DNA of 64,000 bases from assembly GCA_964195235.1 (NCBI GenBank), contig CAXMOW010000004.1, positions 12,622 through 76,621 of the forward strand. Reading direction: 5' to 3'. Position numbers and translations under genes: made by a program. This DNA comes from an uncultured Acidimicrobiia bacterium (lineage in GTDB: Bacteria > Actinomycetota > Acidimicrobiia > Spongiisociales > ZC4RG35). This document shows positions 29,892 through 54,039 of this stretch, one piece after another (position 1 is the first letter of the stretch; every line of letters starts with the position of its first letter). Under the pieces are notes generated by a model. It saw only the letters and a program-made list of their open reading frames with translations, was not told the origin of the DNA and did not search any database.

Positions 29892-30803
29892 ATGTTCGGA
29901 GCCATCAGCTACCCGCCCATTCCCATCTGGGATGTCGGGCCATTCGCGTTCTCGCTACATGGAGTGTTCGCCGCGCTCGGGTTTCTTGCCGGTGCACTGT
30001 TGGCCACACGAGAGTTGCGAAAACGGGGCTACGACGTCCTCAAATACCAGTCGGCGCTCACTTGGGGTCTGATCGGCGCCCTTCTCGGTGCGCGGTATCT
30101 CACGGCTCCCGCTGCAATTATGAACGGCACGCCGATTCTCGAGGCTCTCAACCCGATCTCAGGCAATTTCTCGATATTGGGTGGTTTTCTCGGAGGAATC
30201 GCGGCCGGTTCCTGGCGAATGAAACAGGTCGAGTTGTCGGTCTGGCCGACCCTGGATATGTCCGCCTTCGGGTTGGCCCTGGGAACAGTCGTCGGACGAT
30301 TCGGGGATATCGCCATCGTCGAGCACCTTGGTCGGATTACTGATGTCGCGTGGGGTTATGGAGTGAAACCGGGTTACATCCTGGCCCCCCAACACACCAG
30401 ACTCCAGTGCGCTGAGTCGGCCAATCTGGTAGACGGGTTCTGTCCCTACCCCGGAGATGTTGCGGTCGCTGGCATCTACCACCACGTCGCGGTGTACGAC
30501 TTGATCGGCGCAGCCATCCTGCTCGGCGTCCTCTACTTCGTACGCAGCCGCTTCCGGTTGCACTACGGCCAGCTCTTCTTTCTCTGGGTTGCCTGGTATG
30601 GACTCCAGAGGTTTGTTCTCGACTTCATGCGCTTCGGTATGGGTGACGCCGAAATCGGGAGTTTCACCTGGAATCAGATCAGCGGCTTAGGGGCCGGGAT
30701 TGGTGGTCTAGTCCTGGTGTGGCTGATGGGTCGCAGAGAGTCGCTCGTCAGCGATGAGGAAGACGCCCTCAGGGGCGCCGTCCTCGAGTCCGCCCCCGCC
30801 TAG
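29892..30803 (+). CDS. lgt: prolipoprotein diacylglyceryl transferase
   Basis: It has the family topology, the GRFGDIAIVEHLG segment (GRxGN-like motif region) and a conserved N-terminal H/Y region. Confidence 0.8.
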   Translation: MFGAISYPPIPIWDVGPFAFSLHGVFAALGFLAGALLATRELRKRGYDVLKYQSALTWGLIGALLGARYLTAPAAIMNGTPILEALNPISGNFSILGGFLGGIAAGSWRMKQVELSVWPTLDMSAFGLALGTVVGRFGDIAIVEHLGRITDVAWGYGVKPGYILAPQHTRLQCAESANLVDGFCPYPGDVAVAGIYHHVAVYDLIGAAILLGVLYFVRSRFRLHYGQLFFLWVAWYGLQRFVLDFMRFGMGDAEIGSFTWNQISGLGAGIGGLVLVWLMGRRESLVSDEEDALRGAVLESAPA

Positions 30804-31628: not shown

Positions 31629-32765
31629 TTAGACCTCGATCCCGTGCATCGAATCCACAATCAGCGCGTCCACTACGGCTTTCAGGGCTTCAGACTCGGA
31701 AGCCCCTTCTTCGAGAGTGGCCGTGTAGGTGGCGAGTTGACGATGCGCTGATGTCCCATGTTGAACAATGTCTCGGGCGTGCCTAATTTCTTCTCTGACG
31801 TCGAACTGGACGGCGTCCTGGGCCAGGATCTCGATGAATTCTTCGATCAGCTCATTCATCGGGACGAGCTTGCCCTTCCCAAAATCCACGAGGGACCCGT
31901 CGGTGCCATATCGTTGGGCCCGCCATATGTTCTCTTCGATCATGCCCGGCGAGTAGACGCGCCACTTCTGATTGTTGCGGCGGAGCCTGTAGAGGTACCC
32001 GAGAAGACATTGGTAGAGGGCGGCGATGGTCATTGCATCGTCGAGACGTGTGCATACGTCGCTGACACGCATCTCGAGTGTCGGAAATCGAACGGATGGC
32101 CGTATATCCCACCACAACTTTGTGGCGTCCTCGATCAACCCCGCTTCCACCAGGACGTCCACGTAACGCTCGTATTCGCCCCACGAGTCGAATTCCTCGG
32201 GGATGCCCGTCCTCGGCATGTTCTGGAAGATGACCAGCCGATAGGCATGCAGACCAGTAGGGCTTCCATCCCAAAACGGGGAAGACGTGCTCAACGCAAG
32301 CATGTGGGGAAGCATGTATTTGACCTGATTCATCAGATCAATTCGGAGATCTGGGTTCTCGATGCCCACATGCACATGCATCCCACATATGACCAGCTGT
32401 CGCGCCACCTGCTGAAAGTCGGCTGCGAGACGCAAATAGCGGTCATCTTCAGTGGTCTCCTGATGTGCCCAGTTCGCGAACGGATGAGTAGATGCGGCGA
32501 TGATCGCGCCGCCGTACTCGCTGACCACTCCATTCAGGTCACGACGGAGCTGGGCAACCTCATCGCGGGCTTCAGAGATCTTGGTGCAGACACCGGTCCG
32601 AATTTCGATTTGGGCTTTGAGGAACTCGTGAGTGGCCGCCTCGCCCACAACCTCGTTGATTGTCTCCCACATCGCCTGAGGGGGACTCTTGATCAAGTCT
32701 CGAGTCGCCCTGTCGACGACCAGGTATTCCTCTTCGACTCCGACGGTGAATGCGGGACGTTCCAT
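31629..32765 (-). CDS. carboxylate-amine ligase (GCS2 / YbdK family)
   Basis: ATG at 32765 (MERPAFTVGVEEEYLVVD). GMHVHVG and SSPFW motifs are present. Confidence 0.85.
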   Translation of the reverse strand: MERPAFTVGVEEEYLVVDRATRDLIKSPPQAMWETINEVVGEAATHEFLKAQIEIRTGVCTKISEARDEVAQLRRDLNGVVSEYGGAIIAASTHPFANWAHQETTEDDRYLRLAADFQQVARQLVICGMHVHVGIENPDLRIDLMNQVKYMLPHMLALSTSSPFWDGSPTGLHAYRLVIFQNMPRTGIPEEFDSWGEYERYVDVLVEAGLIEDATKLWWDIRPSVRFPTLEMRVSDVCTRLDDAMTIAALYQCLLGYLYRLRRNNQKWRVYSPGMIEENIWRAQRYGTDGSLVDFGKGKLVPMNELIEEFIEILAQDAVQFDVREEIRHARDIVQHGTSAHRQLATYTATLEEGASESEALKAVVDALIVDSMHGIEV

Positions 32766-32775
32766 GGGCGAGAAG

Positions 32776-33375
32776 CTAGTGGTCCATCTGGCCTCGTCGC
32801 TCTTGGGCGCATTCCTCGCGGACGTGGCACCCGTCGAGGTGGTCGTTGACCAGACCCATGGCCTGCATAAAGGCATAGACGGTGGTCGGACCGACAAACG
32901 ACCAGCCCCGCGTCTTCAGGTCCTTGGATAGTGCAGTTGAGGTGGCGGTGATCGCAGGAATCTCGGTTGGGGTTGGTGCCTCGGGTTCGGCCCACGACCA
33001 GAAGTAAGACGACAGTGATCCACATTCCTCGACCAGATCGAGGGCGCATTGCGCGTTGTTGATCGCGGATCGGATTTTCCCTTGATGTCGGACGATGCCG
33101 GCGTCGCCGAGGAGTCGTTTTACATCGCCCTCTCCGAACCTGACCACAACTCCAGGATCAAATTGTGCGAAGCCTGCCCTGAAATTATCGCGTTTTCGCA
33201 AGATGGTGAGCCAAGACAACCCCGCCTGAAAACCCTCCAGACAGATCTTCTCGTAAAGACGGTGGTCGTCGATAACGGGATGACCCCATTCATTGTCGTG
33301 ATAGCTCCGGTAGATCTCAGGTTCCGACCCCCACCAGCAGCGGATGATCCCGTCTTCGTTGGTGACCAACTCCAT
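32776..33375 (-). CDS. tag: DNA-3-methyladenine glycosylase I
   Basis: RCWWG...YHDNEWGHP...LEGFQAGLSWLTILRKR are canonical Tag motifs. Confidence 0.9.
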   Translation of the reverse strand: MELVTNEDGIIRCWWGSEPEIYRSYHDNEWGHPVIDDHRLYEKICLEGFQAGLSWLTILRKRDNFRAGFAQFDPGVVVRFGEGDVKRLLGDAGIVRHQGKIRSAINNAQCALDLVEECGSLSSYFWSWAEPEAPTPTEIPAITATSTALSKDLKTRGWSFVGPTTVYAFMQAMGLVNDHLDGCHVREECAQERRGQMDH

Positions 33376-39706: not shown

Positions 39707-40663
39707 TCAGCACTTCTCATGTACGCGGGGGTCGTAGGCCTTCTTGTCGCCCACTTCCCCGTCGATCTTGAGGACACCGTCGTAGTTGCTCATCATGTGG
39801 TCGACGATCGGGCGTGTGTAGGCGTACTGGGTGTCGGTGTCGACGTTCATCTTGATTACGCCGTAGCCAATGGCCTCATGAACTTCGTCGAGGTTCGATC
39901 CGCTGCCACCGTGGAACACGAGGAAATGCCGGGCATCGTCACCGAAGCGCTCGGCAACTGCGGCTTGTCCGTCCCGGAGAATCTTTGGGTCGAGCTCAAC
40001 CGCTCCAGGTTTGTAGACACCATGGACGTTGCCGAAAACGGCGGCAAGGAGATAGCGACCCCGGTTGAAGGTACCCAGAACCTCGGATACTCGCACCATG
40101 TCTTCGGGTGACGTGTACAGCTTCGACCGATCAACGTCTTCGTGATCAGTTGCGTCCTCGGTACCGCCGACGATCCCGATCTCCAACTCGAGGACGATGT
40201 CCAACTCGGCACATAGATCGAGTAGCTCGTCGGCAATAGCCAGGTTTTCTTCCATCGGAATCGACGAAGCGTCCAGCATGTGGCTCTGGAATATCGGATC
40301 TTGTCCGGCGGCACGCCGTTCGGCGCTCAAGGCGAGAAGAGGGCGGATAAACCCGTCAACTCGGTCTGCCGGGCAGTGGTCGGTGTGAAGGGCGATGTTG
40401 GCGGGATACTGGGGTGCCACTACCGCAGCGAACTCGGCTAAAGCATGGGCACCGAGGGCCATGTCCTTGTTCGATTGGCCTGAGGCGAATTCGCCGCCGC
40501 CATACGACACTTGGACAATCCCATCGGACTCGGCCTCGCTGAAACCCTCGAGCGCGGCGAGCATCGTCGTTGACGAAGTGACGTTGATTGCCGGCAGGGC
40601 GTAACCCTTGCTCCGTGCGGAGTCGAGCATCGCTTTGTATTTGTCAGGTGTGGCGATTGGCAC
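39707..40663 (-). CDS. fba: class II fructose-bisphosphate aldolase
   Basis: Probable GTG at 40663 (VPIATPDKYKAMLD...). ALPAINVTSS, LHTDHC, FGNVHGVYKPG and VFHGGSGS are present. Confidence 0.9.
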   Translation of the reverse strand: MPIATPDKYKAMLDSARSKGYALPAINVTSSTTMLAALEGFSEAESDGIVQVSYGGGEFASGQSNKDMALGAHALAEFAAVVAPQYPANIALHTDHCPADRVDGFIRPLLALSAERRAAGQDPIFQSHMLDASSIPMEENLAIADELLDLCAELDIVLELEIGIVGGTEDATDHEDVDRSKLYTSPEDMVRVSEVLGTFNRGRYLLAAVFGNVHGVYKPGAVELDPKILRDGQAAVAERFGDDARHFLVFHGGSGSNLDEVHEAIGYGVIKMNVDTDTQYAYTRPIVDHMMSNYDGVLKIDGEVGDKKAYDPRVHEKC

Positions 40664-40780
40664 CCGTGGTCTCCAAAATCTGTGAGTTTGAGGCAAGGTA
40701 GTCGGTCGACCTGTAAGCACCTAAGTGTCTGCAGGCTTTGTCGACTGGGTGTCGCCAACGCCCGCCGATAGCTTGAACGT

Positions 40781-43560: not shown

Positions 43561-43617
43561 CGGTGCTGTCTACGCGAATTCGGTAGGTTCGGTGTGACCG
43601 ATACGAAAGGATGTCTA

Positions 43618-45186
43618 ATGGCGATTTTCTCCAGTCCGTTACCCGATGTGGAGATCCCCACGTCGGCGATAACTCCCATGGTCTTTCGGCACACTGCGGA
43701 GCTGGGGGACAAGCCGGCCATCATCGACGGGACCTCAGGTCGCAGTTACACCTACGCAGAGCTTGCTGGAGCCACCAGCAAGGTCGCCGGTGGTTTGGCG
43801 GCTCGGGGCTTCGGATCAGGCGACGTACTTGCCATCCTTGCCCCCAACCTGCCCGAATACGCCATCGCCTTCCATGCAGCTGCAACAGTCGGCGGAGCGG
43901 TAACGACGATCAATCCGACCTATACGACCGAAGAGGTTCGCTTTCAGCTCGAAGACTCGGGCGCCAAGTTGTTGCTGACGATTCCGATGTTTCTCGACAC
44001 GGCTCGCGAAGCGGCAGCGGGAACGGACGTCGAAGAATTGTTCGTTTTGGGTGATGCAGACGGGGCGACATCCTTCTCCGAGCTATTGGCAGCCGAGCCT
44101 TTCACCGGGAATCCAGACATCAACCCTGATGAGGATGTTGTGGTTCTCCCCTACTCCTCCGGTACAACAGGGTTCCCCAAGGGTGTGATGCTCACGCACG
44201 CGAACCTGGCGGCAAACCTTGCACAATGTGCGCATTTCACTGCCCTCGATGAGGACGAGGTGATCGTGGCGGTTCTTCCTTTTTTTCACATCTACGGGAT
44301 GCAGATCCTCATGAACGGAGTGCTCTACAACGGAGCAACGACGGTGACGATGCCGAGGTTCGATCTGGCCGAGTTCCTGAAGATCGTCGAGGACTACAAG
44401 GTAACTCGTCTGTACGTCGTGCCGCCCATCATCCTGGCCTTGGCCAAGCATCCCATGATTGATCAATATGACCTGTCGAGCGTGAGGCAGATCTTCTCCG
44501 GTGCGGCCCCTCTTGGTGCCGAGGTCGAGGCGGAGGCCGCTGAGCGGGTTGGTGCCGAGGTGGTCCAAGGCTATGGACTCACCGAGACCAGTCCGGTGAC
44601 TCACGCCACACAACCCGGCAAGGCTCGTTCGGGATCCATTGGGTTTGTCATCTCAAACACAGAAGTGCGGGTTGTCGATCCAGAAAGTGGTGCCGACCTC
44701 GATGTTGGAGATGAGGGTGAGATCTGGATCAAGGGCCCACAGGTGATGCAGGGCTACCTGAACAACCCAGAAGCGACACGCTCCACCATCGATGCCGACG
44801 GGTGGCTTCACACTGGCGACCTCGGACGGGTAGACGAAGACGGCTATTGGTACATCACCGATCGGCTCAAGGAGCTGATCAAATACAAATGATTCCAGAT
44901 CGCACCAGCCGAGTGGGAGGCTTTACTCCTGACTCATCAATCGGTTGCAGATTCGGCCGTGATCCCCGTGCAGGACGTGGAGGCTGGGGAGATTCCCAAG
45001 GCTTACGTGGTGCTCAAGCCCGGACAGGAAACCAGCGCGGAAGAGCTCATGGGATACGTCTCGGGACAGGTGGCAACCTACAAACAGATCCGAGAGCTGG
45101 AATTCATCGACGAGATTCCGAGGTCTCTGTCCGGAAAGATCTTGCGAAGGGTGCTGCGTGACCGCGAGGGGGCAGCGGGCTCCTAG
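43618..45186 (+). CDS. AMP-dependent acyl-CoA ligase (4-coumarate-CoA ligase-like) interrupted by an in-frame TGA at 44890-44892 (pseudogene or recoding)
   Basis: Track ORFs 43594-44892 and 44959-45186 are in the same frame. YSSGTTGFPKGV, GYGLTE and [26 protein letters not shown] are followed by TGA and then [13 protein letters not shown]...GKILRR. The TGA sits where the family has Gly (KYKGFQ). Confidence 0.7.
44911..44935 (+). promoter_or_regulatory. hairpin 19 nt downstream of the acyl-CoA ligase in-frame TGA
   Basis: GAGTGGGAG-GCUUUA-CUCC(U)G-ACUC: 9 pairs including one G.U and one bulge. Its significance is not testable by eye. Confidence 0.2.
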
Positions 45187-45213: not shown

Positions 45214-45813
45214 ATGAGGGTTCTTGTCTTGACTGTGGTGCTTGTGCTCTTAGTGGTGGCCTGAGCTGATGATGGGTCCTCCGAGCCCACTTCAGAACCA
45301 GGTGAGTTGACCACCGACGCGGTTGACACAATCGAAGCACCGGACACCACCGTTGCCTTGATGGGGCTAGAGGATCTGGGGCCGGCGAAAGGGTTGGCAA
45401 ATCTCGATGGTTTGCTTCAGACCGATATCACCTCCCTCGAAGAGCTCAGGGGCAAGGTTGTCGTGGTCCAGTTTTGGACGTTCGGTTGCATCAACTGCAA
45501 GAACACCCTTGCCAACCTCAGGGATCTTTACGACGAGCACGCTGGAAAGGAATTTGAGGTCGTTGGAGTTCATTCGCCTGAGTTCTCATACGAGGAGGAC
45601 CCGGCAGCAATTGGCGAGGCTGCGGTCGATCTGGGTGTCACTTGGCCAATCGCCCTGGATACGCGCAAGTTCAACTTTTTTCGCTGGCAAGGCGGACGCG
45701 CCTATTGGCCGCGCACATACGTGCTCGATCAGCAGGGTCACATCCGGTTCGATCACATCGGCGAGGGTGCCTATGACGAGCTGAACGAGACGGTCGCCGC
45801 TCTTCTCGGATGA
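45214..45813 (+). CDS. DipZ C-terminal/TlpA-like extracytoplasmic thioredoxin with signal peptide; in-frame TGA at 45262-45264 at the lipobox Cys position
   Basis: The ATG at 45214 gives MRVLVLTVVLVLLVVA-TGA-ADDGSSEPTSEPGE, in frame with track ORF 45307-45813. The Trx motif FWTFGCINC resembles the C-terminal domain of M. tuberculosis DipZ (FWTYSCINC, from memory). Confidence 0.6.
45266..45295 (+). promoter_or_regulatory. hairpin immediately downstream of the lipobox TGA
   Basis: CTGA-tga-TGGG-(tcctccgag)-CCCA-ct-TCAG: two 4-bp stems with an internal loop. Confidence 0.25.
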
Positions 45814-46370
45814 TCGCCCCTCTCTTCGAGGGCATCGCCCAGTCACTTCTTCCATGCTCATGGATCGTTGTCCTGCCAGCAGTTGCGATTGGCAGCACCA
45901 GGCGGATTCGGGTCATGGGTGTGTTCACCATTGCTGTGATGCTGGCGTCATGGATTGCGGTGTCGGGATGGTTCGCACCACCGGTTTGGGTGGCGGGCGT
46001 GGCGCTTCTGGCCGGGGCAGTGGTCTGGTGGCGATCGGGTCCCGCCGTGGTCCAAGCGGGCGCGGTTGGCGTTGGAGCAGCTTGGGCGTGGCAGCCGTGT
46101 GTCGGTGAGGAGCTCGGTCAGGTTCTCAACACTGCACAACACGATCCCTTTTCCGCCCTTCCCGGCCTGGCGGCATTCATTTTGGGTCTGATTTTGGTGG
46201 GCCTCGGTCTCGGTGCTGTTCTCGGCTTGATTATCCGTCGCTTCACAGACGGGAACTTGGACTGCCCGAGCGCGGTGATGGTTGGCTTGCTTGGGATGAT
46301 GATGGTTGTTGGCATTTATCCGTTGATTGCCTCGATCTTCGCCCGCTGGAGCACTGCTCTCTGGAGTTGA
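45810..46370 (+). CDS. CcdA/DsbD-like thiol-disulfide electron-transfer membrane protein (short form)
   Basis: ATGA overlap with the Trx gene. About 5-6 TM helices with two intramembrane PC motifs (SLLPCSW and WQPCVG). Confidence 0.5.
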   Translation: MIAPLFEGIAQSLLPCSWIVVLPAVAIGSTRRIRVMGVFTIAVMLASWIAVSGWFAPPVWVAGVALLAGAVVWWRSGPAVVQAGAVGVGAAWAWQPCVGEELGQVLNTAQHDPFSALPGLAAFILGLILVGLGLGAVLGLIIRRFTDGNLDCPSAVMVGLLGMMMVVGIYPLIASIFARWSTALWS

Positions 46371-53028: not shown

Positions 53029-54039
53029 GTGAAGACTGCTTACGGGTTGATCGCCATCGCCTTTCTCACACTGGTTGCGTTCTGGCTGGTGGGATCAGAC
53101 GCAGATCAGATTCAGGTCGATGCAGGATCAATTGAGGCTCCTGATGACGCGTATGACCCGGTCAAGGCTGGTGAGCCGACACCCGAGGGTTATCGCCAGC
53201 TGCTCTTCCGAGATGCGATTCTTCCGGTGTACAACCCGACCTTCCGAAGTGTTTCTGCCACCGAATGGTCAGACGACACGCTGGTGATCGGAGTTGAGCT
53301 GGATGATGAGGCCAAGGCGTATCCGGTCCAGTTCCTCAATCGTCGCGAGATGGTCATTGATTGGATCGGAGGTTCGCCGATCTTGGTGAGTTGGTGACCA
53401 CTTTGCGCGACGGCGATGGTCCATCGTCGAGATTTGGGCGGAAAGATACTGGTCTTGGGTAACCAGGGTGCGTTGTGGGGAAACGCTATGACCTGGTGGG
53501 ATCACGACACCGGCTCGGTCTGGAGCCAGCCGCTGGGTGAGGCCATCATCGGACCTCGAAAAGGCGACCGTCTCGAATTGATGGCGTCACAACTGACTTC
53601 TTGGAAAACGTGGAGAACCGATCATCGCGAAACTCTCGCCTTGGACGCACCCGGCGGCGACACGAGGTTCCGGCTCAGCAATATGGCAATTGTCGTTGAC
53701 TTCTCTGACGAGGTAGCCGTCTACCCAGTTCCTGATCTGTCCATCCACGGGCCGGCCAATGACTTTGTCGCCGGTGTCCCGATAGCCGTGGTGCTGGACC
53801 CTGTTACGCCGGATAGGTGGCACGTGTTTCACCGACGTCTCGGAAGTCAGTTGCTCACGCTTGCTGTAGTGGATGGCGCCATCGTCGACAACGAGACGGG
53901 AACCACATGGGATCCAGCCAACGGAAGAGGCCTGAGCGGGCCACTGGAGGGAGAGATTCTCGACACACTCCCCGGTTTCACCTCCTATCAGTCGGATGCC
54001 CGTACGTTCTGGCCTGACGCCAAGTACTGGACGGGCTGA
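53029..54039 (+). CDS. DUF3179-family protein, candidate selenoprotein (TGA at 53395-53397 replaces the first Cys of the CPLC motif)
   Basis: Track ORFs 53029-53397 and 53416-54039 share a frame. Read-through gives ...AKAYPVQFLNRREMVIDWIGGSPILVSW-U-PLCATAMVHRRDLGGKILVLGNQGALWGNAMTWWDHDTGSVWSQ, which matches my recollection of the DUF3179 core (..TYCPLC...F..SG.L....M.D..T.S.W.Q). It has an N-terminal TM/signal helix. Confidence 0.7.
53408..53429 (+). promoter_or_regulatory. candidate SECIS hairpin for the DUF3179 UGA
   Basis: CGAC-ggc-GAU-GGUCC-AUC-GUCG. The apical loop contains GGU about 23 nt after the UGA. Confidence 0.4.

Follow-up and report, generated by a model that had tools for sequence, protein, structure and literature searches.

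An in-frame TGA at the lipobox cysteine codon of a DipZ-like thioredoxin gene, best read as a young nonsense mutation in one near-clonal Acidimicrobiia population

The closest described counterpart of the protein considered here is the C-terminal thioredoxin domain of Mycobacterium tuberculosis DipZ (Rv2874), which works with a membrane protein carrying two Cys. Within the same superfamily, selenocysteine (Sec)-containing thiol-disulfide isomerase-like or TlpA-like selenoproteins are known (cd02966, UxxC; PMC13188914), in which Sec replaces a catalytic Cys of the CxxC motif and a SECIS element follows the TGA codon. DUF3179 is listed as another selenoprotein family, with the motif UxxC/T (PMC13188914, PMC9312934). 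The published bSECIS consensus calls for an apical loop of 3-9 nt with a G in its first two positions, a stem of 4-16 bp, a distance of 16-37 nt from the UGA, and a minimum free energy of -7.5 kcal/mol or lower (PMC13188914, Fig. 2), and some real bacterial selenoprotein genes and bSECIS elements are known to depart from it (PMC13188914).

We analysed a 64-kb stretch of Acidimicrobiia DNA, called the window throughout, in which a DipZ/TlpA-like thioredoxin gene is interrupted by a TGA exactly where the Cys codon of a lipobox would be expected. The features of this locus, with the evidence on which each was assigned, are as follows.

45214 to 45261, forward strand: lipoprotein signal peptide, codons 1-16 (n-region MR, hydrophobic core, L-V-V-A), aligning with orthologue signal peptides that end in LLVVA-C or LxAAC.
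45262 to 45264, forward strand: TGA, in frame, where the lipobox +1 Cys codon belongs; a TGY-to-TGA nonsense change is the preferred reading (codon alignment with relatives).
45265 to 45813, forward strand: rest of the ORF, comprising an Asp/Ser/Thr/Pro-rich linker and a DipZ/TlpA-like thioredoxin domain (translation, profile matches, structure match).
45266 to 45295, forward strand: two-stem hairpin with lower stem CUGA/UCAG, upper stem UGGGU/GCCCA and loop CCUCCGA; not a SECIS (folding, consensus, covariance model).
45412 to 45414, forward strand: W67L, TTG (Leu67) in place of TGG (Trp) (orthologue alignment, DipZ comparison).
45810 to 46370, forward strand: 186-aa membrane protein, translationally coupled through an ATGA overlap (ORF, orthologue alignment; no Pfam or NCBIfam match).

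The ATG at 45214 opens a run of 16 sense codons, MRVLVLTVVLVLLVVA, and after the TGA the frame continues with ADDGSSEPTSEPGE onward, without a shift, to the TGA stop at 45811-45813. Sequence and translation thus agree with the initial annotation, which had described a signal peptide starting at 45214 and a TGA at 45262-45264 in frame with the thioredoxin ORF. The segment 45265-45813 contains no export signal, and the downstream starts TTG 45307 and ATG 45361 would both give a protein devoid of a signal peptide. The AGGTGAG element ahead of TTG 45307 ends just 0-1 nt before that start codon. Bacterial lipoproteins carry the pattern [LVI][ASTVI][GAS]-C, with Cys at +1; here L-V-V-A is in place and the +1 codon is a stop, whereas orthologues of the thioredoxin display the lipobox. 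TGA is also the commonest ordinary stop in the window, closing 27 of 46 genes, the thioredoxin and its membrane partner among them, and for this reason a genome-wide reassignment of TGA was rejected.

The active site of the thioredoxin domain, FWTFGCINC, is intact, with the two Cys codons of the CxxC at 45487-45489 and 45496-45498, and the domain scores above the Pfam cut-offs for both PF00578 (AhpC-TSA, 44.3 bits) and PF08534 (Redoxin, 39.9 bits), so that it combines the Redoxin/AhpC-TSA fold and the CxxC that characterise TlpA/ResA/DipZ-like proteins. The best match among solved structures was M. tuberculosis DipZ (2HYX, E = 6e-27), and the DipZ/TlpA-like assignment proposed earlier is thereby upheld. 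As scores against the NCBIfam ResA and TlpA models fell below their cut-offs, we regard the protein as a member of the superfamily and not as an equivalog of either. It shares with the DipZ domain the motif FW(T/A)(F/Y)xCxNC, a GW motif and a YWP(R/A) motif. In contrast to DipZ, the window thioredoxin has the design of a separate lipoprotein, unfused to a membrane domain and lacking a C-terminal carbohydrate-binding domain, and its gene is interrupted at codon 17 and carries W67L.

The membrane partner begins at ATG 45810, which overlaps the thioredoxin stop (45811-45813) in a 4-nt ATGA. In most loci the partner gene adjoins or overlaps the thioredoxin gene, often through the same ATGA, and the arrangement is conserved across Acidimicrobiia; orthologues of the partner occur in loci L002 to L083. 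Two of its residues, C16 and C97 (the latter in W-x-P-C-V-G), are invariant in 69/69 orthologues, and the window protein keeps both. The partner thus resembles CcdA and DsbD in having two conserved membrane Cys and linkage to an extracytoplasmic thioredoxin. Against DsbD/CcdA profiles, however, it gave no Pfam match at E <= 0.01 and no NCBIfam match at E <= 1. The label "CcdA-like" given to it previously therefore holds for the coupling and for the invariant Cys pair but not for any profile match, and we use it by functional analogy; the partner may represent an undescribed family of CcdA-like electron conduits. The window also encodes the lipoprotein-modifying enzyme Lgt at 29892-30803 (PF01790, E = 2.4e-30), as had been annotated. 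Taken together, an exported lipoprotein, a thioredoxin fold and a coupled membrane partner were the right structural inferences from the DNA.

Searching with the read-through protein brought up 1560 relatives, most of which come from Acidimicrobiia MAGs and have a length near 200 aa. When 33 of these orthologues were aligned, the TGA column coincided exactly with the column of the lipobox +1 Cys, as anticipated from L-V-V-A-C. Apart from two distant members without a lipobox, all the aligned sequences show one with Cys; in none is the codon TGA. The closest full-length relatives in this alignment read LLVVA-C-(A/S)-(A/D)-DG, and a still closer relative found by cluster look-up (P0123, about 93 % amino acid identity) reads MRVLVSTLVLALLVVACADDGFSEPTSEPGE. 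DNA alignments gave the following codons at lipobox +1.

Window, L001 and L103: TGA.
L102, which encodes P0123: TGC.
L085: TGT.
L002 and L003: TGT.

L085 carries indels and frameshifts and served for codon identity alone. TGA differs from either Cys codon by one third-position change. The orthologues read straight through this position as a single ORF with Cys; the upstream segment is therefore an ancestral signal peptide rather than an independent leader, and the suggestion that the first 16 codons might form a separate leader peptide that happens to be in frame was rejected.

The wider survey gave the same picture. The 80 Acidimicrobiia loci taken from GTDB representative genomes encode, at the N-terminus, a Cys lipobox or a transmembrane anchor that is not cleaved, and TGA at the lipobox was found in 0/80. 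An exact-pattern search for the TGA context in GTDB representative genomes returned no match, and none of about 200 other family members outside the TGA-bearing population has TGA at the lipobox. Three seemingly truncated proteins (P0083, P0118 and P0119) were considered as further cases and dismissed as mis-called starts with the Cys lipobox intact; this check covered truncated calls other than P0078 and P0084, whose contigs are under 2 kb. Alignment of orthologues, which the initial annotation had named as a check, has thus placed Cys in the relatives and TGA in the window, L001 and L103.

Pairwise identity among the three carriers is about 99.5-99.9 %, and the TGA is known from this one near-clonal population only. 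The alignment of L001 (assembly ERZ27250139) with the window extends for 20.4 kb and shows 25 SNPs and one 2-bp indel (99.87 % identity); that of L103 (assembly ERZ27250328) extends for 3.1 kb and shows 15 SNPs. The three contigs, assembled separately, differ elsewhere but have the same TGA with the same flanks. The next relative beyond this population, at about 90 % DNA identity, has a Cys codon. An in-frame TGA aligned with the Cys of homologues, as expected of a Sec gene, is thus present in the lipobox column; a TGA kept in other lineages, or a mixture of Sec and Cys across diverged taxa, was not found among the loci compared.

The genome offers a positive control. A DUF3179 gene (PF11376, 53031-54039) lies 8 kb downstream of the thioredoxin gene. 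Its in-frame TGA, at 53395-53397, belongs to the motif W-U-P-L-C, where CxxC has become UxxC, and the same TGA divides the gene in L001 and L102. The motif W-[U/C]-P-x-C was found in 79/80 of the GTDB Acidimicrobiia loci, and TGA occupies the U/C position in 79/79; the sole Cys codon belongs to a second copy in one locus, and one extra TGA match was spurious and out of place. Beginning 17 nt from the U of the UGA, or 21 nt after the UGA by another count, a hairpin (53411-53429) of the form CGGCGAUG-GUC-CAUCGCCG has 8 bp, an apical G-U and a GUC/GGUCC apical loop. It is near-invariant, and synonymous third positions (ACG, GCG, CAT) are fixed across 78 sequences, which at the level of sequence is the signature of RNA-level constraint. 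This TGA had earlier been hinted at as the better Sec candidate of the two, and its conservation together with the near-invariant SECIS supports that hint. The conserved Sec-TGA and SECIS in the window, L001 and L102 indicate that the lineage probably decodes Sec; a tRNA scan of the 64-kb window found no tRNA, tRNA-Sec included.

At the thioredoxin TGA, by contrast, the same tests found no SECIS. Within the bSECIS consensus there were 0 qualifying hairpins, as against 7 at the DUF3179 TGA, the canonical one included; the consensus is loose, for 57 % of random window positions pass it. A covariance model built from 78 DUF3179 SECIS sequences, which scored 64 bits on its own site, gave no match at 45262-45320 (E <= 10, filters off); being sequence-heavy, this model asks how far a site resembles the lineage's one known SECIS, and not whether it could act as a SECIS in general. 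Rfam reported no SECIS family, either at the gathering threshold or, for the two TGA regions, at E <= 10, but it missed the DUF3179 positive control too and so cannot decide the question. The SECIS prediction proposed as a follow-up therefore returned nothing at the thioredoxin codon.

The hairpin pointed out after the TGA (45266-45295) does exist, but its folding does not stand out from that of dinucleotide shuffles (z = -0.63 and -0.69). It begins 1 nt past the UGA, with its 5' arm at nt 5-16 counted from the U. Judging from ribosome footprints, such an arm would probably sit in the mRNA channel while the UGA is in the A site. The hairpin is kept in L102, which has TGC and in which an A-to-G change retains a wobble pair, and the GGG of the 5' arm is common to L002 and L003. 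Since a relative with a Cys codon possesses it, the hairpin predates the TGA.

The lineage model had one further match in the window, at 32021-32050 on the forward strand (CGGCGAUGGU-N5-CAUCGUCGAGA; 16.3 bits, E = 0.04), with a stem almost like that of the DUF3179 SECIS. Because the opposite strand carries a GCS2 glutamate-cysteine ligase gene here (31629-32897, reverse strand) and no TGA lies upstream, we judged it a chance match. A window-wide scan for open frames joined by TGA yielded 244 candidates and, at 58.5 % GC, was too noisy to be of use by itself; the interpretable cases were DUF3179, the thioredoxin and a nonsense codon in the acyl-CoA synthetase gene described below.

Besides the TGA, the thioredoxin gene carries a second unusual change. 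Trp67 is present in 84/84 evaluable loci and in M. tuberculosis DipZ, and Leu occurs at this position only in the TGA population; L001 additionally has V83A. On sequence grounds, W67L and V83A point towards relaxed constraint. Within the TGA clade the thioredoxin gene has only 2 SNPs, one non-synonymous and one synonymous, and its divergence from L102 is mostly synonymous; any loss of function would thus be very recent. When dN/dS was polarised with L102, L002 and L003, changes on the window branch were too few for a test of relaxation.

Decay is visible in a neighbouring gene as well. In the window alone, a nonsense TGA at 44890-44892 interrupts the upstream acyl-CoA synthetase (AMP-binding) gene, 43594-45186. 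In L001 and L103 the codon at 44890 is GGA, for the Gly of the conserved KELIKYKG motif, and the gene is intact at 522 aa; in L102 the gene is deleted, and in L003 it is split. The TGA at 44890 opens a stretch of 186 bp (44890-45075) that holds 13 SNPs, compared with roughly 1 SNP per 1-2 kb elsewhere between these contigs; such a density suggests recombination or a strain-chimeric assembly.

We consider it very probable that the TGA in the thioredoxin gene is a young nonsense mutation, creating a pseudogene or null allele in one near-clonal Acidimicrobiia population. Orthologues are intact, no alternative start restores the architecture of the protein, and the decay next door counts, as far as sequence can speak, on the same side. 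Against this stand an ORF that is otherwise intact and free of frameshifts, an intact partner and a Sec machinery that is very probable in this organism. The position of the lesion also counts against it: of the 64 single-base nonsense paths in the thioredoxin gene, one falls on the lipobox Cys (~1.6 %) and three on any Cys (4.7 %), although the lower figure must be read knowing that the finding was picked for that very property. In a rival reading, SelB would use a non-canonical SECIS (45266-45295 or nearby) to insert Sec at lipobox +1, and Lgt would modify the selenol with diacylglycerol, giving a selenoether-anchored lipoprotein; Sec would have replaced Cys very recently, in a population that uses Sec. 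The exact alignment of the TGA with the Cys of homologues is the classic signature of a Sec/Cys pair, all three assemblies have the ORF intact apart from the TGA, and an Lgt gene lies within the window. Moreover, DUF3179 gives the lineage at least one genuine selenoprotein gene whose SECIS is conserved (family listed in PMC13188914), and real bSECIS elements that violate the consensus exist (PMC13188914). Nevertheless, we give Sec at the lipidation site, the boldest reading offered by the initial annotation, very little chance. The site lacks a consensus structure that most random sites (57 %) would pass, and nothing there resembles the SECIS that this lineage uses for DUF3179, whose stem begins at nt 17; an arm at nt 5-16 would instead lie inside the ribosomal channel. 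The candidate hairpin is non-significant and older than the TGA, being shared with a Cys-bearing relative, and the TGA is unconserved outside one near-clonal population. No catalytic gain is known for Sec at a thioether lipidation site, the redox CxxC remains Cys, and W67L points towards relaxed constraint. In a full-text literature search for selenocysteine together with lipobox, the titles and abstracts of the papers retrieved revealed nothing on Sec at a lipobox.

A leaky allele is somewhat easier to envisage and still unlikely. UGA is the leakiest of the bacterial stop codons, and read-through with Trp or Cys, or reinitiation at TTG 45307 or ATG 45361, might yield a little protein. Consistent with such a hypomorph, the downstream ORF is intact, the partner keeps its invariant Cys, and the TGA population persists in at least three samples. 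Lipidation, however, would be restored by insertion of Cys alone, and the usual level of read-through is under 1 %; proteins made by reinitiation would lack any signal peptide, the AGGTGAG element is too close to TTG 45307, and W67L removes a universally conserved Trp. That the true codon is TGT or TGC, misreported through assembly or sequencing, appears extremely improbable. The difference from relatives is indeed one base, and signs of strain mixing (13 SNPs in 186 bp) are seen 370 bp upstream in the window contig. The same TGA and flanks nonetheless recur in the window contig, in ERZ27250139 and in ERZ27250328, and because these separate assemblies differ at other sites a shared sequencing error is very unlikely. 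Thus, where a nonsense mutation and a sequencing error had previously been offered as a single option, the TGY-to-TGA mutation is supported and the error is unlikely.

On the nonsense-mutation reading, the course of events can be outlined as follows. The ancestral module, conserved across Acidimicrobiia, would have consisted of a DipZ-like thioredoxin held at the outer face of the membrane by a lipid or transmembrane anchor, and of a partner that, by analogy with DipZ and CcdA, presumably sends reducing equivalents outward. A single third-position change from TGT or TGC to TGA would have struck the Cys codon of the lipid anchor, and in one near-clonal population the allele is now fixed or at high frequency. 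A ribosome starting at ATG 45214 would then stop after a 16-residue fragment of the signal peptide. As the thioredoxin domain is left with neither an export signal nor a well-placed ribosome-binding site, it would not be made, or would be made in the wrong compartment, barring low-level read-through of the UGA. The start of the partner overlaps the thioredoxin stop, and its coupled translation is therefore probably reduced as well. The locus would then be a pseudogene of recent origin, or part of a module that is being lost.

Compared with the known systems, the feature is real but ordinary, most probably a strain-level nonsense mutation. It shares with other strain-level nonsense pseudogenes a single-base stop, a near-clonal limit, intact sister orthologues, an extra damaging substitution and a decaying neighbour, and mechanistically it differs from them in nothing; the sole oddity is that, in an organism that uses Sec, the change struck the lipobox Cys codon. 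The likeness to TlpA-like selenoproteins extends to the superfamily, the in-frame TGA at a homologue's Cys and the Sec-using host lineage. Unlike them, the window gene has a Cys-Cys CxxC, its TGA lies at the lipidation site instead of the catalytic motif, and no SECIS is detectable. With the DUF3179 gene of the same genome it has in common an in-frame TGA at a Cys position, whereas conservation of the TGA across loci and a hairpin invariant at synonymous sites belong to DUF3179 alone. For screening, the lesson is that in a Sec-using genome a Cys-aligned in-frame TGA does not suffice to identify a selenoprotein gene; real ones are told from look-alikes by a TGA that is kept across lineages and by a SECIS that stays constant at synonymous sites. 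Were the Sec reading true, it would provide the first Sec at a lipidation site and the first lipoprotein with a selenol as its Lgt acylation site and a selenoether-linked diacylglycerol anchor, and the chemistry of Lgt on a selenol would be testable.

Two smaller observations concern the TGA-bearing population. The 2-bp indel that distinguishes the window (position 39726) from L001 (4364-4365) lies near the 3' end of a fructose-bisphosphate aldolase gene (39707-40720, reverse strand), whose ORF encodes 337 aa in the window and 342 aa in L001, with differing C-termini. In addition, a 632-bp contig of 1x coverage from another study (L187, ENA ERZ23877837) encodes a protein, P0124, whose thioredoxin domain is identical to that of the window and whose N-terminal 31 residues are unrelated to it. 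This contig is probably a chimeric low-coverage assembly, and its thioredoxin domain suggests that the TGA population or a close relative is present in that data set too.
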